DNA of 64,000 bases, taken from the IMG/VR virus record IMGVR_UViG_3300037467_000966; one strand, 5' to 3'. Below the pieces are notes generated by a model, which was not told where the DNA came from, ran no database searches, and saw nothing but the letters and a program-made list of their open reading frames with translations. Positions within the stretch are counted from its first letter, which is position 1, and each line of letters opens with the position of its first letter. Positions 86-29,341 of the stretch are shown here, piece after piece. The position numbers and the translations under genes are program-made. Origin of the DNA: a virus (lineage: Duplodnaviria > Heunggongvirae > Uroviricota > Caudoviricetes).

Positions 86-3000
86 TTACTGAGGTGTAAG
101 AAGATGTTTGTTAACCCGTTTGGGAATAGTTATCTTCTTGACGATGATACTTCTTTCATCATATTGTGGGTTATACTTCGTGTAGCAAGTCAGCTTGACC
201 ACAAGGTCTTTCTTCAGCTGGTCTGCAACCGTAGCATATACATCAGGGAATAAGACCATGCGCTTATTGCCTTCTAATGTATCGACATTAATAAATGCCA
301 TTGTGTCACCTTTCTTAGTCGGCATCACTTTGAATGAAGTCAAGATGCCGCCCGTGTTGACGTTCTCGTAGTCGCCCAGGTAATCCCAATTCACTGGCTG
401 AGAAACATCGGAGAGAGGATTACCAGAGACATAAAGCCCCAGTAATTCCTTCTCTGCTTCCAGTCTAACCTTATCAGTGAATCCATTGATTTCGTCAGAC
501 AAGTCATCCTTATCTCCACGAATCATGTACAATTGCTGCAGGATGTCCATACGGTTCAATGCATCCTTGCCCAGCTCGTCCAGCGCACCAGACCTTGCTA
601 GGACTTGAATGCTCCGTTTGTTAAGCTGCTTTTTCGGAAGTGTTTCAACCAGGTTCTGCAGACTTGTATATGGTCTTGCTTCCATAATATTAGATATTAC
701 TGCTTCGCCTAGTCCTTTGATAGCTGCTAAACCGAAACGTATATCATTACCTTCAACGGTAAAACCTACACCTGATGTATTAATGTCAGGCGGCAGGATA
801 TTGATTCCCATTCGCTTACATTCATTGATGTAGTTAATAACCTTTTCTTCCTTGTCTGCACCAATGGTTAATAGAGCTGTCATGAACTCTATTGGATAGT
901 ACGTCTTGAAGAAGGCAGTCTGATACGCAATGAAGCTATAACAAGCCGCGTGGGACTTATTAAACGCGTAGCCTGCGAACGGACGGATGTCATCACATAT
1001 ACGCTTGGCAACGTGCTGTGGTGTGCCGTGTTCAATCATCTTTGCTTCCAGCTCCTCTAAAGCTGGCTCTAAGATTTCCTTCTTCTTCTTACCTACGGCT
1101 TTACGTAGTACGTCCGCTTCGCCTTTCGAGTATCCAGCCATCCGTTGGGACACTATCATAACCTGCTCTTGGTAAATCATGATACCGAAAGTCTCTTTGG
1201 TAATGGCATCATACTCTGGATGTAAAGCTGGAATGTCTTCTTGACCATTCGCACGACGCTGGTATTGCGGAATATAATCCATCGGGCCTGGACGATACAA
1301 TGCGTTTCCAGCTACCAGTGTGTTGAAGTCTACCTTGTTCATTCCTCTGAACATCTTCTTCATACCATCTGACTCAAACTGGAACACGCCGTCAGTCCAT
1401 CCGTCTTTAATGGTCTGGAATACTTTCGGGTCTGTAGGCTCTAAGCTATCTGGGTCAATGTCAACGCCGTGACGTTCCTTTACAAGGCGTCTGGCAATAT
1501 CAACAACCGATAAGTTCTTTAAACCTAAGAAGTCAAACTTAATGTATCCGATTGACTCTAACGTTGGCCCTTCATACTGGGTAACACGCTCACCGTTCTT
1601 ACCACGCATTAATGGAGCTGCCTTTGATACTGGGTCAGGCGTGATTAACATACCACAAGCATGGATAGATGCAGAACGCGGAAGCTTCTCTACCTTAGAG
1701 GCTAACTCAAACAGTTCAGGATACTGACTGATATACGGCTGTAAGTCCGCGACTTCTTCCATCGCATCTTCAATGGACATAACCTTTCCTTGATGAACAG
1801 GGATTAGCTTATTCATGTCATTGATAATGTTGTGGTCAATGCCTAGACCGCGGCCAATATCTTTGAATGCTGCTTTTGTGGATAAGGTAGTGAACGTACC
1901 AATCTGTGCTACTTGGTCGGCTCCGTACTTCTCTGTAACATAATCAATAACTTCATGTCGTCTGAGGTAGTCGAAGTCCGTATCAATATCTGGGAAGCCA
2001 GGTCGCTCTGGATTAATGAAACGCTCAAACAGCAAATCATATTTGATGGGGTCTAAGTTTGTAATATGAAGCAGGTAACAGACAAGAGAACCAGCACCAG
2101 AACCACGGCCTGGGCCTACTAATATCCCATTGTCTTTCGCATACTTAATATAATCCCAAACGATTAATAGATAAGCTGAAATGTTTTTCTTGGCAATAAT
2201 ATCAAGCTCATAGTTCATCCGTTCCTGGTACTCAACAATGTTGATATCTCTGTCCATTGCTAATTCAAATAAGGCTACGTTACATAGCTGTGCAATGTAG
2301 GTATCAAATGTATGTCCAGATGGAACATCAAACTTAGGGAACTTAATGTCGCCCAGTTCTAATTCCACATTACACTTCTGAGAAATCTGGTACGCATTCT
2401 CTAGTGCTTCATGTGGGATGCCAAAGTCGAGCATCTCTTGAGCACTCATGAAGTAACAATGCTCATACACAGAGATGTCTGAAGCGTCCTCACTGCGTCC
2501 AATTGTTGTTAAGGCAGCGTGAATAGGCTTCTCTTCTTTGCGTAGCATATGGGCGTCTGAAGTGGCTACAAGCGGGATGTTCATCTCGACTGACCATTGT
2601 CTCAGAACCTCATTGACCAATATTTGTTCAGGCATGTCTGACGGTTGAATCTCAAGATACAATTCATCAAAACATTTCTGATAGAAGCGAATCAGGTTCT
2701 TCGCTACTTTATACCTGCCTCTTTGAATCAACTGAGGAACTTCTCCGCCGAGACAAGCAGTTGTGGCAATAATTCCTTTGCCATATCTTTTAATCAGTTC
2801 ATAGTCTGCGCGAGGCTTACGATAGAAGCCCTCCAGCTGGGCACGACTGGTCAGTTCCAGTAAGTTCTCATAGCCTTCATTTGTTCTTGCAATCAGAAGC
2901 ATATGAGCCATATTTGGACGCCAGCCAGTTTGATTCTTTTTGTCAAACCAGAATCCAGGCTGCTTGTCGTACTCCTCTTTCTTCCATGTCCTGTGCGGTG

Positions 3001-3283
3001 TGAGATAAATCTCGTTACCCAGAATAGGTTTTAATCCAGCCTTCTTCGCCTTCGTATAGAATTCAATATGCCCATGACAAACACCATGGTCCGAAATACC
3101 TATTGAATCCATTCCGTATTCTTTGGCAAGCTCGATTAAGTCATCAATCCGACAGAATCCATCCAACAAACTCCATGGAGTATGAAGATGCAGATGCGTA
3201 AAACGTACCGTACTAAAAACATTGTACGGAATATTAGTGACTTCCTGTTTAGTATCAACAGCAAACGATAAATCGTGCGTCAC
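86..3283 (-). CDS. dnaE: DNA polymerase III alpha subunit, DnaE family (PHP domain, polymerase core, C-terminal OB fold)
   Basis: 1065-aa ORF. N-terminal PHP motif HLHLHTPWSLLDG...SDHG. Long collinear polymerase body and a C-terminal OB-like segment typical of DnaE. Confidence 0.9.
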   Translation of the reverse strand: MTHDLSFAVDTKQEVTNIPYNVFSTVRFTHLHLHTPWSLLDGFCRIDDLIELAKEYGMDSIGISDHGVCHGHIEFYTKAKKAGLKPILGNEIYLTPHRTWKKEEYDKQPGFWFDKKNQTGWRPNMAHMLLIARTNEGYENLLELTSRAQLEGFYRKPRADYELIKRYGKGIIATTACLGGEVPQLIQRGRYKVAKNLIRFYQKCFDELYLEIQPSDMPEQILVNEVLRQWSVEMNIPLVATSDAHMLRKEEKPIHAALTTIGRSEDASDISVYEHCYFMSAQEMLDFGIPHEALENAYQISQKCNVELELGDIKFPKFDVPSGHTFDTYIAQLCNVALFELAMDRDINIVEYQERMNYELDIIAKKNISAYLLIVWDYIKYAKDNGILVGPGRGSGAGSLVCYLLHITNLDPIKYDLLFERFINPERPGFPDIDTDFDYLRRHEVIDYVTEKYGADQVAQIGTFTTLSTKAAFKDIGRGLGIDHNIINDMNKLIPVHQGKVMSIEDAMEEVADLQPYISQYPELFELASKVEKLPRSASIHACGMLITPDPVSKAAPLMRGKNGERVTQYEGPTLESIGYIKFDFLGLKNLSVVDIARRLVKERHGVDIDPDSLEPTDPKVFQTIKDGWTDGVFQFESDGMKKMFRGMNKVDFNTLVAGNALYRPGPMDYIPQYQRRANGQEDIPALHPEYDAITKETFGIMIYQEQVMIVSQRMAGYSKGEADVLRKAVGKKKKEILEPALEELEAKMIEHGTPQHVAKRICDDIRPFAGYAFNKSHAACYSFIAYQTAFFKTYYPIEFMTALLTIGADKEEKVINYINECKRMGINILPPDINTSGVGFTVEGNDIRFGLAAIKGLGEAVISNIMEARPYTSLQNLVETLPKKQLNKRSIQVLARSGALDELGKDALNRMDILQQLYMIRGDKDDLSDEINGFTDKVRLEAEKELLGLYVSGNPLSDVSQPVNWDYLGDYENVNTGGILTSFKVMPTKKGDTMAFINVDTLEGNKRMVLFPDVYATVADQLKKDLVVKLTCYTKYNPQYDERSIIVKKITIPKRVNKHLLTPQ

Positions 3284-3465: not shown

Positions 3466-3855
3466 TTATGCTTCAGGCAGCAGAGCAATCTGGTATGATA
3501 GTACTCTCACTGTTTCTGTTTTATGTTTGTTGACGGTTATCTTCTTACCCTTCTTATCATCGTAAGAATGAGAAGTATCAAGACGGCCTACCTTGCCTTC
3601 AACAATGACAGCATCGTCTTTGTTTAACTCGCCGTTATTCTTCACATATAATTCATATGCTTTTGGAGACAAGACAACCTGTGTCTCTCCGATTCCATCG
3701 TCTAATGTGAGGTAAACACCTTCACCAAAATCTGTCATGTTCAGGATAGCTGTAACCTTACCGCCGACAGTCACGGTTTCTCCATGAGAATTTGCATTCA
3801 AAGATGCACTAAACTTTGTAACAAATGGCTTTAAACGTTGAACTAAATTTGTCAT
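3466..3855 (-). CDS. OB-fold nucleic-acid-binding protein (tRNA_anti-like OB), separate gene upstream of dnaE
   Basis: 129-aa ORF. The G-x-V-x-V-x-G-x-V segment (GETVTVGGKVTAIL...VIVEGKVG) resembles the DnaE/PolC OB domain. Confidence 0.5.
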   Translation of the reverse strand: MTNLVQRLKPFVTKFSASLNANSHGETVTVGGKVTAILNMTDFGEGVYLTLDDGIGETQVVLSPKAYELYVKNNGELNKDDAVIVEGKVGRLDTSHSYDDKKGKKITVNKHKTETVRVLSYQIALLPEA

Positions 3856-3920: not shown

Positions 3921-4637
3921 TTATCCTGCTTGAGCCTCCATGCTATCTAATAATTCATTGACCAGTTCATCTGCTTCCGCATTCTCTTCTCGTGGTACAT
4001 GAATGAGATTAATACTATCAAACTCTTCTAGTAATTCTAATGCACAATCACGTAATCGTATTAAGTGTGGCGCTTTTGTAGTAGAAATTCGGTTGACTTG
4101 TGTGACAACCATTCTTGAATCGCTAAAGACATCAATGTGTTTTGCATTTAAACCGTTCGCCAATAGGTATTCTAATGCTTCGATTAATGCAACATATTCA
4201 GCTGTATTGTTTGTAGCTTCTGCTTCTGCGATGTGTTTTTCTGGGTCTTCATGTTGGAGTCTTGGCAACTGAATGGATGAACCGAGATACTTCGCTCCCT
4301 TGTGTAATAGCTGACTATCTCCACGAACAATGTAGGATATGCCGCTTACATTCGGTCTGGTGGTATCGTTGTTCCCTCGTGCCGCGCCGTCCACATTCAC
4401 AACCAACCGTTGGTAGTTATACTTAGGCTCTAGTTTCTCTTTAATTTCTCTGATAAGTAAATCAGTATCATGTCCATCTTCCTTTAATTGTTCAATGAGC
4501 TTACGAAGCTCTTCATTCAATTCATATAGTTGTTGGAGCTTGATAATGTTTCCTTTAAATTTGTCCAGCTGGTAAATCTTCTCCATGTATACTCTAAGAA
4601 GTTCCACCGCCATGTTGTAAGATACTTTGTAATTCAT
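3921..4637 (-). CDS. rnhA: Ribonuclease H (RNase HI-like) with N-terminal coiled-coil extension
   Basis: NVDGAARGN...AEYVALIEALEYL...DSRMVVTQ...HVPREENAEADELVN matches the RNase H catalytic DEDD signature order. Confidence 0.8.
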   Translation of the reverse strand: MNYKVSYNMAVELLRVYMEKIYQLDKFKGNIIKLQQLYELNEELRKLIEQLKEDGHDTDLLIREIKEKLEPKYNYQRLVVNVDGAARGNNDTTRPNVSGISYIVRGDSQLLHKGAKYLGSSIQLPRLQHEDPEKHIAEAEATNNTAEYVALIEALEYLLANGLNAKHIDVFSDSRMVVTQVNRISTTKAPHLIRLRDCALELLEEFDSINLIHVPREENAEADELVNELLDSMEAQAG

Positions 4638-5425
4638 AAGATGTTTTCCCCTTTTTGATGTGTTTATTTATCACTATCTTTGCCTCCTTTTGTTTAACAA
4701 ATACAATGGGACTTCAGCTCAACTGAATACCTGCCACTCAGTTATTTCACGTATATACTCGTACTCGGTCTTCACTACTGAGGGAATGCGCCACCACTCG
4801 CCGTGGGATTACACGTCTTACATATACTTCGTCTACTAGCCACTGACTTTCATAGGGAATTTTAGGGGCGGACAGTGCCGTGACCCTTGGCTCTTCTATT
4901 GCTTGGGCGTCCCTTGCATGACATGAATTCGGTTTATCTAGCAGTACGAATTTTTTCGTGGCTGGCAACTAAGCCTCCATTAGCCGAAGCTAAAGCTAGG
5001 TACAGTCTAGAATGCCGCCTAGACCGCAGCCAGTAGTTCCCTACTTATCTTCCCCTTACTAGAGATTCCTAATATCTTATGTCAGAACACAGTATGAATT
5101 CTCATACCGTCAGCTCACATAAGATTAACTTAGATTTCGGATAGGCTGTCAGGTCACGCTCCTTCATTTATCTGCTGGTGCATCCCCCAGCTAGCACCTA
5201 CGCATCCTAATCTCTAAGTAAGACAAGAAGACTTCAGATATGTCGTCACGGATATTCTTCGGCCCACCGTGCTATCCCAGCCGATATATATGGGATTACT
5301 AAAAGTTCTTGGCATCTTCTTTATCTGGTGACGGGGTTAGTTTTTGGAAGGAGAATAAACCGTCATATCTCCTGGCTCTGGTCAACATTTTTTATTTAAG
5401 CGGGAAAGCTGCCAAACAAAACCCT

Positions 5426-5512
5426 TGGAGCTGCCAGGAGGATTCGAACCTCCGACCTCTCCCCGTCGATGTGGACTCTTGGGGGAGTATTCTACCGCTG
5501 AACTACAGCAGC
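5426..5512 (-). tRNA. tRNA-like gene with encoded CCA. Canonical acceptor, D and T arms, but a 19-nt anticodon loop (12-nt insertion). Anticodon possibly AAG if the insertion lies after position 37.
   Basis: Minus-strand read GCUGCUG-UA-GUUCAGCGGUAGAAU-A-CUCCC[19 nt]GGGAG-AGGUC-GGAGGUUCGAAUCCUCC-UGGCAGC-U-CCA. The 7-bp acceptor stem pairs (two GU), and the T loop UUCGAAU is canonical. Confidence 0.5.
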
Positions 5513-5619
5513 ATATAAAAGACACCCCGCGAAGGGTGCCCCAGTGAAAAAATTATTCTGCCTGCTCGTAGTATTTCTCTAGGATGTTTTGGATATCCAC
5601 ATATGGAAAACTTTCTGTG

Positions 5620-5823
5620 TTATACATTTGCATCATTCTCCTTTTTCTTTTTCTTTAATTTATGCAAACCGAAATCAACAAGCGCATGTAAACCAAACCC
5701 AAGAAGGAATAGTTTAATAAGCCCGAAGAATCCAGTGAAATTAAATCCAAGATTAATTAAAGCTGTTGCAATAATAACGTACAGGATAGCGGCAATAATG
5801 AATCGTAAGTTACGATGACTCAT
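5620..5823 (-). CDS. Small hydrophobic membrane protein
   Basis: 67-aa ORF with two predicted TM stretches and a lysine-rich C-terminus. Abuts the vWA gene stop. Confidence 0.4.
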   Translation of the reverse strand: MSHRNLRFIIAAILYVIIATALINLGFNFTGFFGLIKLFLLGFGLHALVDFGLHKLKKKKKENDANV

Positions 5824-6614
5824 TACAATACAACACCTTTTGATTTCGCTTGACGTAACCAGTTAGGGAATTCTTTTAATACGGCTTCGTAAAGCTTCTC
5901 GTCAGCAATTCCATTCACATCTGAAATCTTTGTGAAGTCAGCGTTGTCTAAGTAGCGGCCTGTTAAATCATCCAATGATTGCAGATAGTTGAATGACTCA
6001 TTGCCGATACCGATGAACTGCCAGAAGATACCCTGCTTAGCAGCCTCAGTAATCACACGAGTTGTTTCAGAACGGTCACCATTGTCACCATCTGTCATGA
6101 AGAATACCAGTGTAGGAATCTTAACAGGCTTTACATCTTCAGGCATAACCGTCTTGCTTACTACTTCTGTTACGGTCTTTGATTTTGCACCGAACAGTTT
6201 GCCAAGGAATCCAGCTTCCACTTCTTTTGTTACTTCTTCTTGAACAACTTGTGGAGTGATAGCTGTGCCGTACTTAGCAATAATTTGTTTCATTACTGGA
6301 GCATACTCCGTACCACCAGATGCACGAAGACCCTTCTTCTTTAAGAAGTCTTTGTGATTGCTTTCATTGGCAGAACCAATATATTCATAGCCATGATTGA
6401 AAGCATAGATGTCGATTGATTTGTTTGGGTCCATGTTCATTCCAACGCCGATGAAGCGGTCAGCTTGTTCTTGAACATTCCCTTTGTCAATTTCCCATCC
6501 CATAGAACCTGATTTGTCGATAGCGAATACGATGTTCGCTTGAAGACCAGCAAGCCCTAACTTCTCTAATACGATTGCAGATTTCTTTTTTAAATCAATT
6601 ACGTTACCCAACAT
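5823..6614 (-). CDS. von Willebrand factor A (vWA) domain protein, TerY-like
   Basis: MIDAS motif VFAIDKSGSMG followed by ...FFMTDGDNGD. Sits next to the TerC/TerD genes. Confidence 0.8.
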   Translation of the reverse strand: MLGNVIDLKKKSAIVLEKLGLAGLQANIVFAIDKSGSMGWEIDKGNVQEQADRFIGVGMNMDPNKSIDIYAFNHGYEYIGSANESNHKDFLKKKGLRASGGTEYAPVMKQIIAKYGTAITPQVVQEEVTKEVEAGFLGKLFGAKSKTVTEVVSKTVMPEDVKPVKIPTLVFFMTDGDNGDRSETTRVITEAAKQGIFWQFIGIGNESFNYLQSLDDLTGRYLDNADFTKISDVNGIADEKLYEAVLKEFPNWLRQAKSKGVVL

Positions 6615-6619
6615 GTTTC

Positions 6620-6660
6620 TCCCCCTAGAAATTAGTAAAGCGGCCCCGAAAGACCGCTTA
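6620..6660 (-). terminator. Intrinsic terminator-like hairpin after terC
   Basis: aagcgg-ccccgaaaga-ccgctt stem-loop, then an A/U-rich tail on the transcribed strand. Confidence 0.45.
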
Positions 6661-6730
6661 TTTAAAGAATCGTCTGATAGCTCTGATGGCTCTGTCTATA
6701 GATGTAATCATGCTGATAAGTTGTCTGATA

Positions 6731-7483
6731 TTACGCGGCAACATTTTTCTTGCTGCCCTTGTTCTTTAATGCGTGAACCACAAATGTTAATCCAAATGTG
6801 ATGATTAAAACAATAAAGAATAACCAGTCTGGAGCTTCATATGAAGTCCAGTGTTGACCGATAAGGTTACCTACTTCATGCAGTTCAGTTACAAACATCT
6901 TAACCGCAATCAAGAAGATAAGAACGAATGCTGTTCCTTCCATCTCTGGAACCTTATTGATAAGCTTAATGAATACACCTGCAACAGAACGCATCATTAA
7001 GATACCAAGGATACCACCAGCGATTAATACATAGAAGCTTTGAGATAAAGCAAATGCTGCTAAGATACTATCAACAGAGAAAGCAATGTCCATTAACTCA
7101 ACAGAGATAATTGTTGTAACGAATGGCGACAAGCCAAGCTTACCAAAGAATGCTTGAACCTTGTTTTCTTCGAACTCGTCATTGATACCATCGCCGTCTT
7201 CGTCTTTCTTCTTAGAGGCAAAATGCTTAATAGATAAATAAGCAAGGTATAAAGCACCAACTGTTTTGATGGCCCATAAGTATTCCCAATCAGCGATATA
7301 AGCCCAGCCGAAGATACATACAGCACGGAAGATAATCGCGCCCCACATACCATAGAAAAGTGCTTTCTTTTGCTGACTAAGTGGTAATCTCTTTGTCATT
7401 ACTGCAAGTACTAATGCATTGTCTGCGCTTAGCAAACCTTCAAGTACGACTAACGTAACTACTAGTCCAATGATTGATAACAA
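6731..7483 (-). CDS. terC: TerC-family integral membrane protein
   Basis: Multi-TM 250-aa ORF with the TerC signature LLSADNALVLAV near the N-terminus. Confidence 0.85.
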   Translation of the reverse strand: MLSIIGLVVTLVVLEGLLSADNALVLAVMTKRLPLSQQKKALFYGMWGAIIFRAVCIFGWAYIADWEYLWAIKTVGALYLAYLSIKHFASKKKDEDGDGINDEFEENKVQAFFGKLGLSPFVTTIISVELMDIAFSVDSILAAFALSQSFYVLIAGGILGILMMRSVAGVFIKLINKVPEMEGTAFVLIFLIAVKMFVTELHEVGNLIGQHWTSYEAPDWLFFIVLIITFGLTFVVHALKNKGSKKNVAA

Positions 7484-7634
7484 CTATTCCAACTCCCTAA
7501 TTAATATTTGTTTTTGATTTTGTCCACTACATGTTTTGCTGCTGCCTTCACATTATCGTGAAAGAAGTGACCTACCACATAACCAACCACGAATGTAAGA
7601 ATCGTCCCTGACATCTTCATTCCCCCTGTAGATA

Positions 7635-7672
7635 TAATATCTATATATAAGAAAGGGCCGAAGCCCTCTCGT
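7635..7672 (-). terminator. Intrinsic terminator after terD (RNA hairpin GAGAGGGC-UUCG-GCCCUUUC plus U/A-rich tail)
   Basis: gaaagggccgaagccctctc inverted repeat immediately downstream of the 7676 stop. Confidence 0.55.
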
Positions 7673-7675
7673 ATT

Positions 7676-8257
7676 TTAAGCGACTGTTAATCCATAATCT
7701 TTAACGAAACCAGCTAGGCCATTTGCATAACCAGCACCGATAGCGTTGAATTTCCATTCGCCGTTTACTTTATAAATCTCACAAACTGCTACTCCAGTTT
7801 CAATAGAGAAGTCCTCACCTAAATCAAAGCGAAGGATTTCTTCATTTGTGATTTGGTCATACACGCGGACATAAGCATTGGATACTTGTCCGAAGTTTTG
7901 AGAACGACGCTCTGCTTCATAGATAGTTACTACGAAAGCAAGCTTCTGAATGTAAGCAGGCATTACTGAAAGGTCAACTTTGATTGTCTCATCATCGCCC
8001 TCTGTGCCACCAGTCAACTCATCCCCTGAGTGCTCAACTGCACCAGAAGCATGACGTAGATTATTATAGAATATAAAGTCGCCTTCGTCACGAGTTTTAT
8101 TTAATTCATTAACCATGAATACTGAAACATCCAGGTCAAAGTCTGCTCCGCCAGCATACTTATTTGTATCCCAGCCTAATGCTACATTAATCTTTGAAAG
8201 GTTTGTTCCTTTCGTTAAATCAACACGTTGCCCTTTTTTTACCAACTCAACTGCCAT
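7676..8257 (-). CDS. terD: TerD-domain stress/tellurite-resistance family protein
   Basis: GWDTN...GADFDLDVSVF...GD..TGGTEGDDETIKVDL...FVVTIY.A...QNFGQVSNAYVRV..GEWKF.A.GAGYA.GLA is a near-textbook TerD. Confidence 0.9.
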   Translation of the reverse strand: MAVELVKKGQRVDLTKGTNLSKINVALGWDTNKYAGGADFDLDVSVFMVNELNKTRDEGDFIFYNNLRHASGAVEHSGDELTGGTEGDDETIKVDLSVMPAYIQKLAFVVTIYEAERRSQNFGQVSNAYVRVYDQITNEEILRFDLGEDFSIETGVAVCEIYKVNGEWKFNAIGAGYANGLAGFVKDYGLTVA

Positions 8258-8388
8258 GATTCATTTCCCCTTTTCATAAAAGTCTTTTACTTCCATCCAT
8301 GCTTTTTTATAACCATAGTCATGACCTAAACAAAAGCCACCAACGACTGCGATGGTGACTATGCCTAGCATCTTTAACACTTCAATCA

Positions 8389-9006
8389 TTAGTTGATTCC
8401 AGCTACATAAGCCTCAAGACCGCCGCCGTAACCAGCGCCAACAGCTTTGAATTTCCAATCTCCACTGTGCTCATAAAGCTCACCAATAACCACGCAAGTT
8501 TCAATTGAGAAGTCCTCTGATAAGTCATAACGAGCTACCACTTCACCAGTTCCATCATTGACTACTTGCACATACGCATTGTGTACTTGACCAAAGTTTT
8601 GGTTACGTGTTGCTGCATCATAGATAGTGATAGCAAAACGAACAAACTTTGCAGCGATAGGAAGCTTCGCTAAATCAATTGTTACTGTTTCATCAGGGCC
8701 AGTACCTTCACCAGTACGGTTATCCCCAGAGGATACCACGCTGCCCGTAGGGTCACTTGGATTATTGAAGAATACGAATGAGTTCTCAGATATGATTTTG
8801 CCTCCATCACCTAAGATTGCAGCAGATGCATCTAAGTCAAATGCAGAACCGTCATACTGATTAGCATCCCAACCTAATTCCACTTTGAATTTTGTTACTC
8901 CTGGTACTGATTTTGTAAGATTGATGTTACCGCCTTTTTGCAAATTAATCATTTTGTTATTCCTCCCAATTTTTCTTTTGATTTTTTCTTGAATATATTT
9001 TATCAC
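8389..9006 (-). CDS. terD: TerD-domain protein (second paralogue)
   Basis: LGWDANQYDGSAFDLDASAAIL...SGDNRTGEGTGPDETVTIDL...QNFGQVHNAYVQV...GDWKFKAVGAGYGGGL has very high similarity to canonical TerD. Confidence 0.9.
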   Translation of the reverse strand: MIKYIQEKIKRKIGRNNKMINLQKGGNINLTKSVPGVTKFKVELGWDANQYDGSAFDLDASAAILGDGGKIISENSFVFFNNPSDPTGSVVSSGDNRTGEGTGPDETVTIDLAKLPIAAKFVRFAITIYDAATRNQNFGQVHNAYVQVVNDGTGEVVARYDLSEDFSIETCVVIGELYEHSGDWKFKAVGAGYGGGLEAYVAGIN

Positions 9007-9081
9007 TGCTCTTCACTTGAGTCATAGGCTTGCGCTCCCAAGTGATTCGCGGTGGAGTTACCTTTGGCTTTTTCTTTTTCA

Positions 9082-9327
9082 TCATGATTCCTCCGCCTTT
9101 ATGCTAAATCTTGTTCTGCAAACAGGGCATTTAAATCCAGCACTGAATTCTTCGACTGGCTTTATCCTTGGAACATAATAGTTCTCAAGGATTCTTCGAA
9201 GAGCATTTAGTTCAAAGTTGTTCAACTTCTTCAATGTCTTCTCCTCAAAGAAATATACAATGCCTGGATTTGGCGGCGGAGCTAACTGCATAATTTCTGC
9301 GATGTGCTCATCCTGTCTTCTACCCAT
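9082..9327 (-). CDS. Small hypothetical protein with C-terminal CPVC zinc-ribbon-like motif
   Basis: 81-aa ORF containing FKCPVCRTRF. Confidence 0.4.
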   Translation of the reverse strand: MGRRQDEHIAEIMQLAPPPNPGIVYFFEEKTLKKLNNFELNALRRILENYYVPRIKPVEEFSAGFKCPVCRTRFSIKAEES

Positions 9328-9339
9328 TCAATCACTTCC

Positions 9340-9546
9340 TTACTCATCTAACTTAAATGGTTCCCATACCTTATCATCCCAGCTAGAGGATATGTTGCTC
9401 AGCTTTTCGCTGTCAAACTTCTGTCTGAAGTGTTCTTCCAACTGTTTAACCACGGCGGGATTTACAACAAAGCCACCCATGTTATGGTCAATCAGAAAGT
9501 TCTTCAGGATAATCTTGCGAATAATATCATACTCTTTATTCACCAT
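9340..9546 (-). CDS. Hypothetical protein
   Basis: 68-aa ORF collinear with its neighbours. Confidence 0.4.
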   Translation of the reverse strand: MVNKEYDIIRKIILKNFLIDHNMGGFVVNPAVVKQLEEHFRQKFDSEKLSNISSSWDDKVWEPFKLDE

Positions 9547-9785
9547 TCATCTGGCCTCCATCCTAAAACATGTACAACAAAATATCCAACAGGGAAAATT
9601 AAAACAAGAAAGCCAATAACGCAACTTGTTATAATGGGCTGTTGTTTAAAACCTGCAATAACAAGCATGACAACTGCAATTGCTAGAAGCAGGATTAATA
9701 GAATTTGTATACCTACCATGAAGTAAGTGCCCCAGCTTATCCAGGGAAACTTCTTTTTCTTTTCTTTGTTAAGATTGACTGCCAT
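9540..9785 (-). CDS. Small membrane protein (two TM helices)
   Basis: 81-aa ORF with hydrophobic core ...GTYFMVGIQILLILLLAIAVVMLVIAGF. Confidence 0.45.
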   Translation of the reverse strand: MAVNLNKEKKKKFPWISWGTYFMVGIQILLILLLAIAVVMLVIAGFKQQPIITSCVIGFLVLIFPVGYFVVHVLGWRPDEW

Positions 9786-9786
9786 A

Positions 9787-10047
9787 TCAATACTCCTTAC
9801 TTAGTAGCATTGCAGCGCCCTTATTGCTCTTTAAAGATTCGCTTAGGTACAATGGAGTAAACCCACGGTCAAAGGTTAGAATGCCTTCCCAACCTGCGTA
9901 CAAGCTGCCGTAGTTTTCTACAAGTCTAAAAGTTCCTTCGCATTTGTTTGGGGCCATACTAATTAACTCAAGCTTATGAAAGCTATACTCATATACCCAG
10001 CCAACTTTAAAACGATTGCCTTGTGAGTCACGTCTTTCTGGTGGCAT
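9787..10047 (-). CDS. KEW-tail family small protein (C-terminus ...AAMLLSKEY)
   Basis: First member, in transcription-terminal position, of a tandem array of small proteins sharing the C-terminal LL(S/D)KEW peptide. Confidence 0.55.
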   Translation of the reverse strand: MPPERRDSQGNRFKVGWVYEYSFHKLELISMAPNKCEGTFRLVENYGSLYAGWEGILTFDRGFTPLYLSESLKSNKGAAMLLSKEY

Positions 10048-10048
10048 G

Positions 10049-10342
10049 TTACCACTCCTTACTTAATAAATTAACGGCTTCTTTATTTGATTCAATAGCA
10101 ATTTCAACGGCGTCTTCTGCTGTTATACCTAGTCCTACTCCATTGCCCATAGGAACATTCATCCTACGTACAAACTCGGAGTAGTTATAATCATCAGGTT
10201 CCAAGCGGAGAACCTTCTCATTATCTTCACTAGGAATTACCCGATAGCCACCATTAGATTTCTTTTCTACATCAAAGACTTAACCTATCATTTTTTTATA
10301 CCACTTGCTAGTGGAAGAAATACTTTTAATTCGTACTTTCAT
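10049..10342 (-). pseudogene. KEW-tail family member interrupted by an in-frame TAA after codon 20 (nonsense pseudogene, or shorter product from an internal start)
   Basis: Minus-strand frame reads MKVRIKSISSTSKWYKKMIG*VFDVEKK...NKEAVNLLSKEW. The stop follows an A7 tract and the same frame continues to the family C-terminus. Confidence 0.5.
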
Positions 10343-10343
10343 C

Positions 10344-10652
10344 TTACCACTCCTTTGAAAGCAATCGCTTTGCTTCCATATTGTTTTTCGCTTGAGGAAA
10401 CATCAGGTCTTCTTCAGGATAAGAGTTCCTATAAGTTAGCGCATCCTGCGGCCAATCTTCTGGAGCCACTACGCGAATATCATACCACCATCCTGTCTTG
10501 AAATCACCGTCGTCCCAGAACACATCTAAGATTCTAGCTTGTGGTGTCTGCCAACTGCCGAGTTGCTTTATGTAATAAGCCTTTGGCTGTAGCGTAATGA
10601 TATCGCCTACCTTAAAGTTAGCCGTCTCCTTGCTCGGTCTATTTCTTGCCAT
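10344..10652 (-). CDS. KEW-tail family small protein (...EAKRLLSKEW)
   Basis: 102-aa ORF with the C-terminal family motif, tightly packed against its neighbours. Confidence 0.6.
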   Translation of the reverse strand: MARNRPSKETANFKVGDIITLQPKAYYIKQLGSWQTPQARILDVFWDDGDFKTGWWYDIRVVAPEDWPQDALTYRNSYPEEDLMFPQAKNNMEAKRLLSKEW

Positions 10653-10653
10653 C

Positions 10654-10959
10654 TCACCACTCCTTGCTTAAACGTTTTTTCGCTTCTTGATTTGTTACTG
10701 GAGGAGCTTCCGCCAACATCAAATCTATATCGCGATAATATAATTCATCTTGGGTTTCATCTTCCCAGAGGACAGAATATTGAAAGTGCTTAAAGTGTTT
10801 AGAATACTTTCCTTCTATCTCTCCTTGGTGACATCTACCCACAATGGTTCCGACAACAGCATATTCTTCTCCATTGTCACCTTCTCTTTTGTTTTGTTCG
10901 TACCACTCTGAATCATCTGTAAGTAGTACTTTCTCTCCTAATTCATACATACCTACCAC
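10654..10959 (-). CDS. KEW-tail family small protein (...EAKKRLSKEW)
   Basis: 101-aa ORF. The true start is probably ATG at 10948-10950 (MYELGEK...). Confidence 0.6.
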   Translation of the reverse strand: MVGMYELGEKVLLTDDSEWYEQNKREGDNGEEYAVVGTIVGRCHQGEIEGKYSKHFKHFQYSVLWEDETQDELYYRDIDLMLAEAPPVTNQEAKKRLSKEW

Positions 10960-11171
10960 TCCTTGTCCAATAGGGTAGAAGCCCCTTTGTTATTACTAGA
11001 TACAGGAGCTAAACATGATAGAAAAGAATGACATTCTACGCCATTGTCCCATTTAATACGAGGACTTTCTTTTCCTTCTCCTTCTATAATGGTTCCTGTC
11101 ATACCAACTGGAACATTATATCCTGGGTGTACATACTTAATTCGTTTGACTCTTTGACCTTTGTAATACAT
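10953..11171 (-). CDS. KEW-tail family small protein (...ASTLLDKEW)
   Basis: Start adjusted to the internal ATG (MYYKGQRVKR...) just after the upstream gene's stop. The longer track ORF overlaps its neighbour out of frame. Confidence 0.5.
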   Translation of the reverse strand: MYYKGQRVKRIKYVHPGYNVPVGMTGTIIEGEGKESPRIKWDNGVECHSFLSCLAPVSSNNKGASTLLDKEW

Positions 11172-11172
11172 T

Positions 11173-11445
11173 CTACCACTCCTTGTCCAGCAGCCTAGCA
11201 GCTTCCTTATTACTAGAAGAAGGAATAGAAATAATCCTATCTCCATATGGGTCTAGCCTGTGAGACACTACGCTGCCAAGCCAGCCGCATCCTTTTGGCT
11301 TTCTTACAATCGTTGCCATGTTAGCATGGTCATCCCAGGCCAAATCCCTTGGCAACTCAAAATCCATTCCAATTGCATCCATAGAAATAGATTTCCTTTT
11401 ATTCTGCCCTATGCGGATAATCGTTCCTTTTGGAAGCTTCTTCAT
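11173..11445 (-). CDS. KEW-tail family small protein (...EAARLLDKEW)
   Basis: 90-aa ORF, first gene of the tandem array. Confidence 0.6.
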   Translation of the reverse strand: MKKLPKGTIIRIGQNKRKSISMDAIGMDFELPRDLAWDDHANMATIVRKPKGCGWLGSVVSHRLDPYGDRIISIPSSSNKEAARLLDKEW

Positions 11446-12044
11446 ACCATCACTCCTTGAATAAAAAAAATTCTTTACCCAATAGAAAGTACAAACAAGA
11501 TAGGATTCGAATCAGCGTGTGCATGCCCCAGGTTAGCAGCTAAAGGAAACCATAGGTTCCTCCACTCATCTAATACCTATCATTGATAAGAGAACGTCAG
11601 ACCAGGCTGGTAATTTCTAGGCATGCATTTAACCCCACCTGTACCATGAGGTCACCTACAACGTCTTGGAATTCTCTTATGCGTACTCTCTATTCAGTAA
11701 AGAATTTAAAAAGCTCCTTGGGCAGGAAGAAAATAAGATACAATCATAGGCTTCAGTGCTTACCATCCGACAGTGGGACTCGAACCCACACGCCTCTCGG
11801 CGGACAGAGCTATCTCCGTCTGCGTCTGCCAATTTCGCCATGCCCGATGGGGCTTACTTGGCACCTATGATATGGAGAAGAACTTCGGATTGGTGTCTAT
11901 TGCAGACCCCAGAAGGAATCGAACCAGCTACTTTCCGCTTATAGGCGGCTGTTTTACCCAATAAACTATGCGGGCCTCCACTACACCGTAGTTCCTGGCA
12001 TTCTTCTCATTCTTATTCTCTACCTGCCCAAAGAGCAAGTAACC

Positions 12045-12602
12045 TTATTTACCTAGTATGTGTTCAACAATATCACTGACTCCGTGGAATCCGTAAATCA
12101 TTGTAACACCGTCAAGCTTTTCAAGCTCCTGATTCCAATGATGACTAGGAACCAGAACAGGTCGCCCTGTCTTAATCCAATCTACCACATTATGGATAGC
12201 ATCGTCAATTAAAATGTCCGCATTAATTAGGTCTTTCCTAGATGCCGTAATAAAATTCCTTTGTGGAATGAATGGAAGATTCTTTTGCAACCAGTTCCAC
12301 TTACCACCTACTGCGTTAGGAAAAGCAGACGTAACAATAATGACATCATAGTTTTCAGTAAGCTTCTTTAGTTCAGGAACAACATATTCATCAACCAGTT
12401 CCAGGCTTTCATAAGTCGCTGGGTCATTCAGATAAGATATTAAATCATAGTCAGGATGAAATACCTCATGTTTAAATGCCGCCATCTGTTCGTATTCTAA
12501 TTGATGGTCTGGGTGAAGAATATTGTGGTGTTCCATAATCCGTTTCATTAAATAAACAATTGTGTCGTCCATATCAACCGCGACGATTTTCTTTTTCTCC
12601 AT
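12045..12602 (-). CDS. 5'(3')-deoxyribonucleotidase (HAD superfamily, NT5C-like)
   Basis: N-terminal HAD motif I VAVDMDDTIV, with size and layout of dNMP nucleotidases. Confidence 0.8.
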   Translation of the reverse strand: MEKKKIVAVDMDDTIVYLMKRIMEHHNILHPDHQLEYEQMAAFKHEVFHPDYDLISYLNDPATYESLELVDEYVVPELKKLTENYDVIIVTSAFPNAVGGKWNWLQKNLPFIPQRNFITASRKDLINADILIDDAIHNVVDWIKTGRPVLVPSHHWNQELEKLDGVTMIYGFHGVSDIVEHILGK

Positions 12603-22989: not shown

Positions 22990-23769
22990 TTAATATCCGC
23001 CTGGACTTTCTTCGCGGTGTCCTTGCCCACTGACAATCATGTTGTTTAACTTTCTAATATAATCACCCATTGTTTTGCATTCTTCCATGTGAGGAAATCC
23101 ACGGTTCTTCATTATCTTAAAGCATGTATCACCAACTTCATCTTCAACCATCTTTAAGCAATTACGAAGAAGAATATCTGTGCCCATTGGCTCCTTAACT
23201 GCTTCTTTTATTTCAGCATTCAATGGAGTATCAATGGTGAATCCATACTTGGCAGCGAACCGAATCGCCCGTGTTGCTAAGTTTGTTGTCATCCTGTCCG
23301 TTGTTTTTCTAATGATTCCTCTATCAAGGTCACGCCATGCATACTTCGGAGCATAGAAAAAACCATCTGACTTCAAACATATCTGATTAATACTAAAGTC
23401 AAAACGAACGGGAGCGAATGCCCACTCATCATCTGCATTAATCCAATGAACAGGTATTTCTGATTTCGTGAATGTGTAGGGGTCGCAATAGATGTCATGA
23501 GGAATCTCTGTTCCATCCTGCTGCCCAAGTGCTAACACTCCTGTCTTTTCTAAGATGTCTCTTGCATAAGGAACATCACGAATACAAACATCATAATCAT
23601 TCCAGTGCTTTCCCTTGTATAAATCCCTAGGAAACCCACCTGCAAATGACCATTGTGTTCCATGTTCCATTGCAACTGAATCCATTATATCCATGAATGT
23701 TTTCATGCCTGCATCAATCTGACCTTCATAAGGTCGTCTTTCGTATTCAACTTCAGTCGGGTGCATCAT
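22990..23769 (-). CDS. Hypothetical protein
   Basis: 259-aa ORF with coherent composition. Confidence 0.6.
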   Translation of the reverse strand: MMHPTEVEYERRPYEGQIDAGMKTFMDIMDSVAMEHGTQWSFAGGFPRDLYKGKHWNDYDVCIRDVPYARDILEKTGVLALGQQDGTEIPHDIYCDPYTFTKSEIPVHWINADDEWAFAPVRFDFSINQICLKSDGFFYAPKYAWRDLDRGIIRKTTDRMTTNLATRAIRFAAKYGFTIDTPLNAEIKEAVKEPMGTDILLRNCLKMVEDEVGDTCFKIMKNRGFPHMEECKTMGDYIRKLNNMIVSGQGHREESPGGY

Positions 23770-23995
23770 TTACCTCCTTTCATTAAACAAAACATCCAGC
23801 GTTCAGCATCATCGTTTCACGGCCCCGTGCTCGCGCAGTAGCCTGCCACTAGCTTAATAACTGGATGTGACATATAGATTTCAGATTAATCCTAAGACCT
23901 TCACCTAAAACGGTATGGCGGGAATCTCGCTTTTACTCGCTATGAGGACATTAATTACCAGCGTTGTCATCGCCGTAACCCTATTCTTAGGCAAC

Positions 23996-24151
23996 CTTAA
24001 TTTCTATTCATCTTAGACAGCACGATGTCAATCGTCACTGAAGTGTAGCTGCTCCCAAGAAGTCAACTCACTTAGGTAGTAAAAAATACTGGTTGGAGAT
24101 AACCTAAAAAACCTACCTACCATCATACTGTCTAAGACAAATAGAACCACA
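23996..24151. repeat. Inverted-repeat-flanked element, copy 1 (TIRs TTAATTTCTATTCATCTTAGACAG / CTGTCTAAGACAAATAGAACCA)
   Basis: ~22-bp imperfect terminal inverted repeats enclosing ~110 bp. Confidence 0.6.
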
Positions 24152-24316
24152 TCAACTTCGGACGGTGTACCATAATCCCCCTTCCTTCGATGTTGACCAC
24201 TCCTTGAATCAATCACGAAGGCGTAGGAAGTCCGCAGCCCATATTTAATCCTTGGCATTGATGTGGGATAAACAGATTTCAGTAGACCGCTTACGCTATT
24301 AGCGGGGTCCATGTGT

Positions 24317-24416
24317 CCTTAATTTCTATTCATCTGGGAAGATGCAAAGGCGGGGCCTACAATCGGGCATAATCCGCGGTCATATCATTGCATCCTCCAA
24401 GATAAATAGAACCATG
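24317..24416. repeat. Inverted-repeat-flanked element, copy 2 (TTAATTTCTATTCATCTGGGAAG / CTCCAAGATAAATAGAACCA)
   Basis: Same TIR family as copy 1, with different interior. Confidence 0.55.
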
Positions 24417-24563
24417 TGTAATTCAACGTCAACAGGCTGCCACGCTGCGTGACATTTAAACTTCGTCAAAGCTCCATCACCCTAGCTTAATATACACATG
24501 GTAATAAACAGATTTCAGAATCAATAGATGTGCAAGGCGGCTTAGAAGGCCGCGGCACTCATC

Positions 24564-24649
24564 TTAATTTCTATTTATCTTAGAAGGTACAACACATAAG
24601 TTGTGAGCTGGTCAAGCTCGTTATACCCTCTAGGATAAATAGAACCACA
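24564..24649. repeat. Inverted-repeat-flanked element, copy 3 (TTAATTTCTATTTATCTTAG / CTAGGATAAATAGAACCA)
   Basis: Same TIR family. Spacers between copies share TAAACAGATTTCAG. Confidence 0.55.
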
Positions 24650-24895
24650 TAGAGTTCAGTGTCGCGGTGTGAAGAGTTTGTTGGCTCGCTATGAGTTTCC
24701 ATCCCATCACTAACTTAATATCTATGTGGAACGCAAGAACTTCGGTTTCAAACAGGAATTGGTTTCCACTCACTAGTGCTGTCCACCCTAACCTTGGCAT
24801 TCTTACATCTTTGAAAATACGAAGCAGGGGAAAGGAACCGAAAAGGAAACCTGCCTCGTACCCTCAAAGACGAAAGAATATCTTTCGCCCGAAGC

Positions 24896-25288
24896 CTACC
24901 AGTCGTATTCAATACTACCAAACTTGATTTCAATCAATTGCTTGATGACCGCATCATACTTATCAAGTTTTAATCTCACTTGATTCTCTGTCATCTTGCC
25001 TTCCTCCAACTTACTTTCATAATAATATTTATTATCCAGTATGCTGTCGGCAATTCTTTCAAGGTCAAGAACCTCGCGTCGATTCAATTCAAATTCTTCT
25101 TTGATAAAAGAATACAATGGGTCTTTCACATCACCGATATAATCAAAGTGTTTCAACATCGCATCTGGAAGTTCCATTAGTTCTTCCAATGTTTGCGGAT
25201 TGTTAAACTTCCTTAAGAAAGCATCGACTCGTTTTAAGTCAATGCCTTCCTTCTTTGCAAACTCTCTTAATAATGAAATACCGTCCAC
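24896..25288 (-). CDS. Hypothetical protein
   Basis: 130-aa ORF. Confidence 0.55.
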   Translation of the reverse strand: MDGISLLREFAKKEGIDLKRVDAFLRKFNNPQTLEELMELPDAMLKHFDYIGDVKDPLYSFIKEEFELNRREVLDLERIADSILDNKYYYESKLEEGKMTENQVRLKLDKYDAVIKQLIEIKFGSIEYDW

Positions 25289-28377: not shown

Positions 28378-28613
28378 TTTGACTCCTCCACTTCTTCTTC
28401 TAATGGTTCACCGAATGCTGCCGATACAAGAATCGTATTGCTGTTGTCGTACTCCCAAACTTTCACGAATGGGTCAATGCCTTTTGGAGCCTTAAACTTA
28501 CGTGTTGTGCGTGGCGGGATGGGACTCATATCGCATTCAATCCCATGAATCGCTGTTGCTGGATGAATCACATACTCCTTGTTTGTATCATTGTAAAATA
28601 TCATATTATCCAC
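28374..28613 (-). CDS. Hypothetical protein
   Basis: 79-aa ORF. Confidence 0.5.
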   Translation of the reverse strand: MDNMIFYNDTNKEYVIHPATAIHGIECDMSPIPPRTTRKFKAPKGIDPFVKVWEYDNSNTILVSAAFGEPLEEEVEESK

Positions 28614-29341
28614 CCATCTAAAGTCGCATCAAAGATTAAATCTCTTAGCTTCTCCTGAAGCTGATTGTTTACTTCGACACGAATTTCTTTTGATTTGTAA
28701 ACATCTTTTAATTCTTGTGCTGCTGTTTCCCAATCCTTAATCAGCATTCTGATTTCATCAAATGTAAACTTACCACGTTTGATATCTATCATGAACTGGC
28801 GTTCTTCACCTTCATACCAGATAGCTTTCTTGTAGTCCGTAAAGCCATTTGCATGAAACTTAACCAGTACTTTGCAAAGATGAACAGCCAACATTGCTTT
28901 CTTTGGATTGTAAGCATGTCGTTCAATCAGTGCCCGTGTCTTCTCCGAAGTTGGATTCTGAAGGTCATTGATGTTCCGCTGAACCGTACCCATCGTAGCA
29001 CTGTAAAGATTGGAGAGATTCATATTGGCTATGTCATCTCTCATCGCAATGATTTCATCCATCTTCTGGCATCCGAATGTTTCAATGCCTGGGCTAAATA
29101 ATAAATCAAGATAAGCAGGATTCGCTTTGAACAATAAAGTCTCAAGCCGTCTTACATCCTGAACATCTTCATCCACTTCATCCGAAGTTGTTTGCTTTGC
29201 ATGCTTCTTGCCTTCATATAAATCATCAAAGGTTGGAAGAACAAAGTATTTCAAATCCACATCTGATTGTTCATCATTTAAATTACGCATATGACTGCCG
29301 CCATTTATCATAGCAACAACATGTCTGTCATGCTTCTTCAT
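28601..29341 (-). CDS. Predicted nucleotidyltransferase (Pol-beta superfamily fold)
   Basis: GGSHMRNLNDEQSDVDL fits the GS-x9-13-DxD NTase signature. Confidence 0.5.
   Translation of the reverse strand: MKKHDRHVVAMINGGSHMRNLNDEQSDVDLKYFVLPTFDDLYEGKKHAKQTTSDEVDEDVQDVRRLETLLFKANPAYLDLLFSPGIETFGCQKMDEIIAMRDDIANMNLSNLYSATMGTVQRNINDLQNPTSEKTRALIERHAYNPKKAMLAVHLCKVLVKFHANGFTDYKKAIWYEGEERQFMIDIKRGKFTFDEIRMLIKDWETAAQELKDVYKSKEIRVEVNNQLQEKLRDLIFDATLDGWII

Follow-up and report, generated by a model that had tools for sequence, protein, structure and literature searches.

Locus and predicted architecture

The stretch of DNA analysed here (64,000 nucleotides (nt), hereafter the window) belongs to a virus of the class Caudoviricetes, IMG/VR record IMGVR_UViG_3300037467_000966. 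An island bounded by the stop codon (12045) of a 5'(3')-deoxyribonucleotidase gene and by the start codon (11445) of a gene encoding 90 amino acids (aa) is predicted to encode a structured non-coding RNA (ncRNA) of ~575 nt on the minus strand. The initial annotation had described this island as GC-elevated, poor in open reading frames (ORFs) and furnished with three tRNA T-loop-like motifs that do not complete cloverleaves. The base composition was confirmed (GC content of 0.457 versus 0.411 for the window), and it is the tRNA-bearing half (0.502) that supplies the excess. The same is true for the scarcity of ORFs. All long ORFs of the window are located on the minus strand, and on this strand the island contains none of at least 60 aa, only one of 54 aa besides short overlapping plus-strand ORFs.

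Relatives of the locus were obtained solely via exact-protein look-ups. Five identical copies are present in independent assemblies (L003-L007), and sequencing error is therefore ruled out. L008 is a 97% variant, and more distant lineages are represented, as ranked by nucleotidase identity, by L009 (86%), L010 (75%) and L016/L017 (71%). In all these relatives a homologous RNA locus is found downstream of the nucleotidase gene.

Folding and covariation show that the island RNA, as modelled, is built from two tandem homologous three-way-junction units, A and B, each with a closing helix of 25-26 base pairs (bp), two arms and a U-run (Table 1). The units comprise ~250-330 nt each. In every arm, an outer helix leads to the pedestal, as we call a conserved asymmetric internal loop (5'-GCCA, UCCA or AUUA opposite 3'-GAA or GAC), which is followed by a short inner helix (3-4 bp in unit A) and an exchangeable cargo of 60-110 nt. 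The closing helix P1 of unit A (12036-12011/11738-11713) has 26 bp including one U-U mismatch and two G-U pairs and represents the longest inverted repeat in the window. The second-longest is the closing helix P1' of unit B (11707-11683/11492-11468), with 25 bp, one mismatch and two G-U pairs. Arm 1 of unit B aligns as a homologue of unit A, and unit B is a diverged duplicate of unit A.

Table 1. Positions of the island, its predicted elements and related features; relatives' slot contents are listed at the end.
Feature	Position	Strand	Description
RNA island	12036-11461	minus	predicted structured ncRNA, ~575 nt, two tandem units
Unit A, P1 5' strand	12011..12036	minus	GCUCUUUGGGCAGGUAGAGAAUAAGA; pairs with 11738-11713
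Unit A, P2 5' strand	12000..12008	minus	GAGAAGAAU; pairs with 11883-11875; encloses module 1
Slot 1 pedestal loop GCCA	11996..11999	minus	invariant in five unit-A homologues; opposite GAA 11886-11884
tRNA-like module 1	11902..11976	minus	class I cloverleaf, CAU-type, nucleotide 34 missing; no CCA encoded
Slot 1 pedestal loop GAA	11884..11886	minus	invariant
Unit A, P2 3' strand	11875..11883	minus	GUUCUUCUC
Unit A, P3 5' strand	11863..11871	minus	AUCAUAGGU; pairs with 11751-11743; encloses module 2
Slot 2 pedestal loop GCCA	11859..11862	minus	
tRNA-like module 2	11764..11848	minus	type II, tRNA-Leu-like; no CCA encoded
Slot 2 pedestal loop GAA	11752..11754	minus	
Unit A, P3 3' strand	11743..11751	minus	GCCUAUGAU
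Unit A, P1 3' strand and U-run	11708..11738	minus	P1 3' strand 11738-11713, then UUUUU (11712-11708)
Unit B, P1' 5' strand	11683..11707	minus	AAAUUCUUUACUGAAUAGAGAGUAC; pairs with 11492-11468
Unit B, arm 1	11586..11680	minus	P2' AUAAGAGAAU/GUUCUCUUAU; pedestal UCCA/GAC; 68-nt non-tRNA cargo (11666-11599)
Unit B, arm 2	11493..11585	minus	P3' GAUAGG/CCUAUC; pedestal AUUA/GAA; 62-nt non-tRNA cargo (11570-11509)
Unit B, P1' 3' strand and U-run	11461..11492	minus	P1' 3' strand 11492-11468; followed by the ribosome-binding site of the next gene and its ATG at 11445
T-loop-like motif 1	11789-11773	minus	GTGGGTTCGAGTCCCAC
T-loop-like motif 2	11925-11915	minus	GGTTCGATTCC
T-loop-like motif 3	11513-11503	minus	GATTCGAATCC
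Third tRNA-like gene	5512-5426	minus	51.7 bits; perfect stems; encoded CCA; 'anticodon loop' of 17-19 nt
Slots of L009			100-nt type II tRNA-like module (loop CCUGAAA) and tRNA-Leu(UAG)
Slots of L010			type II module with Tyr-like loop (CUGUAAA) and non-tRNA cargo
Slots of L016/L017			type II module with 6-nt loop (CGGAGG) in slot 1; CAU tRNA or tRNA-like module in slot 2

Covariation and strand of the scaffold

Minimum free energy (MFE) folds of unit A, run independently for five homologues or lineages, revealed the same three-way junction of P1, P2 and P3, and compensatory positions were found at 8 of the 26 positions of P1, 3 of 9 in P2 and 6 of 9 in P3. For the covariation analysis, eight scaffold copies were aligned after removal of the cargos, with slid pairing partners and 500 shuffles serving as controls. 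Here, 94.0% of the cells are paired, in comparison to 44.6-52.3% with slid partners. Changes on both sides occur in 21 of the 43 pairs (2-5 in the slid controls), and the covariation score amounts to 0.473 versus 0.08-0.13; none of the shuffles reaches the observed score. Furthermore, 26 G-U pairs contrast with four A-C mismatches. This asymmetry indicates that the functional molecule is the minus-strand RNA and not a palindrome on the DNA level. A z-score of -2.97 was obtained for the fold of the 318 nt that follow module 2.

The tRNA-like modules

The minus strand indeed carries the three T-loop-like motifs, offset by 1-3 nt from where they had first been placed. Their core TTCGANTCC occurs five times in the window, whereas 1.37 occurrences are expected and one of 100 shuffles reached five; three of the five copies fall within the 600-nt island. 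For two of the motifs the missing cloverleaves were found, since ARAGORN, which the initial annotation had proposed as a check together with covariance models, identifies full cloverleaves at 11976-11902 and 11848-11764. For the third motif the earlier statement stands, as no cloverleaf surrounds it at any ARAGORN threshold tried, relaxed ones included. This third 'T-loop' is a strand of the scaffold and is not tRNA-derived. It is composed of the end of the fourth cargo, the GAA loop and the 3' strand of P3' (...UGAUUC-GAA-UCCUAUC; GAUUCGAAUCC) and parallels the unit A strands ...AAUCC-GAA-GUUCUUCUC and AAUCCGAAGUUCU.

In both modules the elbow of the L-shape, made up of the D and T arms, is intact, with GG in the D loop and a UUCGAnU T loop, and the acceptor stems contain one or two mismatches. 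Module 1 was reported by ARAGORN as tRNA-??? (at) with an 'anticodon' of two bases. The Rfam tRNA model (RF00005) matches 11975-11904 with 31.4 bits, a narrow pass given the gathering score of 29, while the ordinary tRNAs of related phages reach 54-65 bits. The aligned anticodon loop, CUAUAA, has 6 nt because nucleotide 34 is lacking: the alignment with the CAU tRNAs in slot 2 of L016/L017 contains a single gap, which lies at C34. Two mismatches each are present in the acceptor stem and the T stem.

Module 2 was reported as tRNA-??? (atag) with a 4-base 'anticodon' and is not matched by the Rfam tRNA model even at E<=10. It has a D arm of the tRNA-Leu type, a variable arm of 4 bp, a perfect T arm and an acceptor stem of 7 bp with one G-G mismatch. 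Its anticodon arm, GACGG-AGAUAGCU-CUGUC, presents an 8-nt loop in which position 33 is not U. In the MFE fold this arm becomes a 7-bp stem with an AUAG tetraloop, and the D, variable and T hairpins are formed as well. The 18-mer of the anticodon hairpin has three unrelated matches in 596 Gb of genomes.

Neither module possesses the canonical anticodon stem of 5 bp with a 7-nt loop, U33 and a triplet. Given loop sizes of 6 and 8 nt, or a tetraloop in the latter case, the modules as modelled cannot present a normal U33-plus-triplet anticodon, and decoding by them is unlikely.

The alignment of module 2 with tRNA-Leu(UAG) of L009 yields a mosaic pattern. The D arm is identical at 19 of 19 positions and the T arm at 16 of 17, whereas the anticodon arm agrees at 1 of 18 and the variable arm at approximately 1 of 18; both divergent arms are still able to form stem-loops. 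On sequence level, this shows that the anticodon and variable arms are hypervariable on a conserved tRNA body. It also bears on the candidate explanation 'decayed tRNA genes' of the initial annotation, which is partly right with respect to origin, because the homologous slots of the relatives hold a CAU tRNA and tRNA-Leu(UAG) with normal 7-nt loops. A uniform decay is contradicted by the mosaic of nearly identical D and T arms next to an entirely different anticodon arm.

Exchange of cargos among the relatives

The slots of the relatives are filled differently (Table 1), and in two cases near-identical genomes differ by replacement of a whole arm or cargo. The nucleotidase protein and the flanks of L016 are the same as those of L017, yet the cassette in slot 2 (5470-5580) is wholly different, with the breakpoints located at the pedestal. 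The island of L008 is identical to that of the window except for one entire arm of unit B (L008 1553-1650; window ~11595-11500). The replacement arm brings its own helix, in which P3' changes from GAUAGG/CCUAUC to GAUAAA/UUUAUU in a compensatory manner, and the AUUA/GAA loop is kept. A homologue of the replacement cargo is found in the window at 23868-23800. A gene call in L008 begins inside the swapped arm; it accompanies a change of the normal start codon from ATG to ATA and was not taken as coding evidence.

A family of type II tRNA-like modules of ~100 nt was observed in the relatives (L009 4143-4244, L010 6639-6738, L016/L017 ~5313-5420). Its members share a conserved and unusually long variable-arm hairpin (tip ACGUAUCGU), and their anticodon loops read CCUGAAA, CUGUAAA and the 6-nt CGGAGG.

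The third tRNA-like gene and further pedestal loci

A third tRNA-like gene is present in the window at 5512-5426, and all three such genes have anticodon loops of the wrong size. Here, the 29-nt anticodon arm, CUCCCCCAAGAGUCCACAUCGACGGGGAG, is identical at 29 of 29 positions to 23S ribosomal RNA (rRNA) of Paenibacillus, Enterococcus and Listeria. The matched stretch corresponds to approximately E. coli 2465-2485, which we take to be the helix 89 hairpin. Among the homologues of this gene, the loop comprises 7 nt in L034 and 18 nt, of different sequence, in L036; a 6-bp stem, U73 and CCA are common to all. As far as can be judged from these genes, a tRNA body in which a foreign hairpin replaces the anticodon arm is a recurring design in this phage group. 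It is mainly for this reason that the odd anticodon arms of the island are read as payload and not as damage. A search of the window for antisense targets of the 17-nt loop was negative. At the corresponding locus of L035 (4597-4668) a well-formed tRNA with the anticodon CUA, the amber-suppressor type, was observed (63.4 bits).

Public 'phage' records that match CUCCCCCAAGAGUCCACAUCGACGGGGAG proved to be fragments of rRNA operons. MZ092003.1 (81-84 kb), PQ520109.1 and OR846755.1 are filed as phage and contain unannotated bacterial 23S-5S rRNA (2010-2964 bits with LSU_rRNA_bacteria). In Paenibacillus phage Pd_22F the rRNA adjoins a serine recombinase gene.

A strict pedestal descriptor finds six perfect copies in the window, every one of them on the minus strand and within one of three ORF-free regions (12.0-11.4, 5.4-4.6 and 24.9-23.8 kb). 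In comparison, the plus strand yields one weaker match, and shuffles give 1.2 on average. The second region (4638-5425, minus) follows directly after the 5512-5426 gene, is ORF-free over ~790 nt and has a conserved start (AGGAGAUAUGACGGUUUAUUCUCCU...). It contains the pedestal module AAGAAGAU-GCCA-...-GAA-GUCUUCUU at 5313-5233, whose cargo length varies among relatives; the counterparts lie at ~7400-8830 in L034 and ~6330-6720 in L036. The third region (23770-24895, minus) is an ORF-free array of 1.1 kb made up of the same modules. GCCA/GAA pedestals are located at 24798-24741 and 24256-24157, and several UAGAA-AUUA-AG...CU-GAA-AUCUG units as well as three long hairpins on UUCUAUUUAUCUUAG/CUAAGAUGAAUAGAA are present.

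Genome setting

The window proteins include DNA polymerase III alpha, TerD/TerC/TerF-like proteins, a ThiF/JAB/prokaryotic-ubiquitin cluster, NAPRTase and a sigma factor, and the ORFs read normally with translation table 11. Two further genes act on RNA. A CCA-adding enzyme with PolyA_pol head, RNA-binding and HD domains is encoded at 41629-42882 (minus strand), and the RNA-repair nucleotidyltransferase RlaP at 28601-29341 (minus strand). Their presence is in line with maturation or repair of tRNA-shaped RNAs by the phage.

The nearest isolates are the jumbo Bacillus phages vB_BceM_WH1, vB_BauM_KLEB27-3 and Edson, with ~50% amino-acid identity. The nucleotidase that flanks the island is also encoded on a metagenomic contig of 526 kb; among cellular proteins, it is most similar to homologues from Paenibacillus. 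In 50,697 phage records, blastn found nothing similar to the island or to 23770-24895. Pattern scans for scaffold and cargo in viral_contigs, metagenome_contigs and genome_contigs, collections that do not hold this phage group, gave chance hits or nothing.

Directly downstream of the island, small paralogous proteins of 80-100 aa are encoded in tandem over ~9000-11445 on the minus strand. Four of these paralogues (10344-11445) terminate in K-E-W; the array gave no Pfam matches. In L009, 13 small ORFs in a row (4708-8300) are found at the position that matches this KEW array. The DNA polymerase III alpha gene (86-3283, minus) is followed by a separate ORF of 129 aa (3466-3855) with an OB-fold and a weak match to the HINT domain, which could represent a split gene or the remnant of an intein.

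Comparison with known RNA systems

With Rfam 15 at E<=10, no family besides tRNA was found in 11300-12200, 4500-5700 and 23740-24940. The locus resembles phage tRNA clusters, Y RNAs, GOLLD/ROOL and processing stalks in one respect each and, by the criteria that can be checked, belongs to none of them.

Phage tRNAs serve as counter-defence against tRNA-cleaving systems (PMC13096335). For example, tRNA-Tyr of T5 and T6 is reported to counter retron-Eco7 and Septu (PMC13096335; Azam et al., 2024, PMC11555353). As in such clusters, tRNA-shaped RNAs are gathered in gene-free stretches here, a CCA-adding enzyme and RlaP are encoded, and most of the variation falls on the anticodon and variable arms, whose loops are the cleavage targets of host nucleases. 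In contrast, the known counter-defence tRNAs have 7-nt loops, are functional and take the place of cleaved host tRNAs, whereas the loops of the island have 6 and 8 nt. Furthermore, the island genes are embedded in a covarying three-way-junction scaffold, which is undescribed for those clusters.

Like the island RNA, bacterial Y RNAs (YrlA), which are bound by Ro60/Rsr (PMC4201824), occur in some phages and combine a long stem joining the 5' and 3' ends with a tRNA-like module that includes T and D arms. The island modules differ in that they retain an anticodon arm and are present twice per unit. No Rfam match to Y RNA or YrlA was obtained at E<=10, and the TROVE domain of Ro60/Rsr is absent from the 50 window ORFs scanned. 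GOLLD and ROOL (PMC12286853) are likewise large structured ncRNAs of phages and prophages, typically beside or even containing tRNAs. The island units are much smaller, modular and tandemly repeated, and no GOLLD or ROOL match at E<=10 was found in the three regions named above.

In rRNA operon stalks and at the intergenic sites of T7, long helices flank a stable RNA and are processed by RNase III. The island shares with them, as far as its sequence alone can tell, long flanking helices with an internal loop inside a polycistronic transcript, but an internal loop like its conserved 4x3 one (GCCA/GAA) is not known as a signal for RNase III. An inspection by eye showed that the pedestal does not fit the consensus of a kink-turn, of sarcin-ricin/loop E, of the hammerhead core or of the archaeal bulge-helix-bulge. 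A mimic of the 3' NCCA end of tRNAs was considered as well and is weakened by the common AUUA variant.

In the engineered 'tRNA scaffold', the approach of Ponchon and Dardel, a foreign hairpin replaces the anticodon stem-loop, and the chimera is processed and stable. The 5512-5426 gene with its 23S helix 89 hairpin has exactly this design, although the engineered scaffold is a laboratory tool. Literature searches revealed neither a natural phage equivalent of it nor a description of a scaffold like that of the island.

Further candidates were rejected. The intron-containing tRNAs proposed by the initial annotation are not supported: the loops comprise 6 and 8 nt, compared to the 200 nt or more of a group I intron, and neither Intron_gpI nor any other intron family matches at E<=10 over 11300-12200. 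A transfer-messenger RNA was found neither by ARAGORN nor by Rfam. In the 5' strand of P1, UGGGCAGGUAGAGAAUA (12014-12030, minus) agrees with E. coli 23S 1621-1637 at 16 of 17 positions, and none of 150 shuffles was as good. This match is absent from Firmicute rRNAs and from the scaffolds of the relatives; it is therefore probably due to chance, and an rRNA origin of the scaffold was discarded.

Interpretation and rival explanations

Of the candidates named by the initial annotation, tRNA-like structural modules of a larger ncRNA fit best, since two cloverleaves tip the arms of a three-way-junction RNA that is supported by covariation; the third motif does not belong to them. Going one step further, the comparative data lead us to favour, with some reserve, that the island encodes processed, tRNA-scaffolded, non-decoding small RNAs, which are possibly decoys.

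Mechanistically, the island would be transcribed by read-through, which is assumed because no promoter-like site is found directly upstream. The closing helices and pedestals would act as signals for processing or presentation, like the RNase III stems that flank rRNA or lie between T7 genes. The tRNA body would be the carrier, whose fold may be recognised by the RNase P and RNase Z of the host as well as by the CCA-adding enzyme of the phage and would resist decay, and the anticodon and variable arms would be the variable payload. The products would be stable, tRNA-shaped small RNAs that do not decode. More speculatively, the released RNAs might be mimics that act as decoys or competitive inhibitors of host nucleases or of enzymes recognising tRNA or rRNA hairpins. 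Such a role would be consistent with reports that phages employ tRNAs against tRNA-cleaving defences (PMC13096335) and with the occurrence of RNA-repair genes in jumbo phages (PMC7824862).

Several observations weigh against this interpretation. The four stem mismatches of module 1 together with its marginal score have the appearance of decay. Canonical 7-nt loops persist in several homologous cargos (Leu-UAG, Tyr-GUA, Met/Ile-CAU), and the scaffold could be a plain frame for tRNA expression and processing of which the window happens to hold two dead copies. The pedestal loop matches no RNA motif that we could name and, as noted, a promoter-like site directly upstream is lacking. Short-BLAST comparisons of the island cargos with E. 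coli 16S, 23S and 5S rRNA and with Enterococcus and Paenibacillus 23S and 5S rRNA, which would reveal mimicry of host RNA, gave only chance-level matches of 10 nt. One example is GGAGAUAGCU of module 2, whose match presumably lies in the helix 35 region of 23S rRNA. Finally, the phage is known only from metagenomes, among them the JGI 33000374xx samples and the SRR351xxxxx runs, and the reading is drawn from its sequence. The main limitation is that only approximately four independent lineages are available, so that the covariation rests on few events.

A wider reading can be offered as a tentative proposal. The locus may be a member of an undescribed modular ncRNA class with three-way-junction frames, pedestal loops and interchangeable cargos at at least three loci in the window, forming an arsenal of mimics or decoys that is diversified by the exchange of cassettes between slots. 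Among the cargos would be tRNA bodies in which other hairpins, in one case the exact copy of 23S helix 89, have taken the place of the anticodon arm, and the targets would be host factors recognising hairpins of tRNA and rRNA.

The main rival is an ordinary phage tRNA operon with RNase III-type stems, in which both genes were pseudogenised, one by the deletion of C34 and the other by a remodelled loop, and are without function. The normal-looped tRNAs in the same slots of the relatives would be expected in this case, and the mismatches and score of module 1 as well as the failure of module 2 with the Rfam tRNA model point in the same direction. Nevertheless, we regard this explanation as unlikely, since the divergence is uneven: the D and T arms are kept, whereas the anticodon and variable arms are fully replaced and still helical. 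A dead operon would also not account for the wrong loops in all three tRNA-like genes of the window, of which the third shows no other defect and bears an exact copy of an rRNA hairpin. Furthermore, a 6-nt loop recurs independently in slot 1 of L016/L017, and unit B as well as the other loci mount non-tRNA cargo on the same scaffold.

A role in cis is improbable. Here, the closing helices and U-runs would be conditional terminators or mRNA-stabilising structures that control read-through from the nucleotidase into the KEW array, and the tRNA-like parts would be incidental. It is true that a U-run ends each unit, that the 3' strand of P1 with UUUUU could be a terminator-like end of unit A, and that in L010, L016 and L017 the homologous U-run is directly followed by the ribosome-binding site of the next gene; the lack of a promoter-like site before the island would fit as well. 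However, a consensus terminator scan finds none on the minus strand at the island, and a 'loop' of 270 nt with two conserved cloverleaves far exceeds the needs of a terminator. In addition, the same modules are present at other loci beside different genes.

Unconventional decoding is still harder to defend. According to this explanation the 8-nt loop would read a quadruplet in the style of a +1 frameshift suppressor, and the 6-nt loop would serve doublet or -1 decoding at specific phage sites. Loops of 8 and 6 nt are indeed the sizes found in frameshift-suppressor tRNAs studied experimentally, and a relative carries the CUA tRNA at a related locus. Against this, position 33 of the 8-nt loop is not U, the loop can close further to leave a 7-bp stem and a tetraloop, mismatches occur in both acceptor stems and the window ORFs are normal in table 11.

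An element on the DNA level, with the nested inverted repeats as insertions of the miniature inverted-repeat transposable element (MITE) type, recombination sites or cruciforms, would accord with those repeats and with the swapping of cassettes but is barely credible, since the outer helices differ in sequence between slots and relatives and keep their pairing, the opposite of transposon terminal repeats, the excess of G-U over A-C only makes sense for a minus-strand RNA and the cargos include bona fide tRNA folds.

Significance

The tRNA genes of phages are usually read as helpers for codon usage and lately as spares against tRNA-cleaving defences. At the locus described here, the tRNA body appears to be under constraint while the anticodon arm is free in size and sequence, and the body is mounted on a covarying RNA frame that also holds non-tRNA cargo. 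Annotators of large phages have here a concrete reason to keep calls such as 'tRNA-???' or 'pseudo-tRNA'. Should the modules prove to be processed and stable, they would represent a natural counterpart of the 'tRNA scaffold' of the laboratory, and RNA decoys may then form a layer of phage counter-defence.

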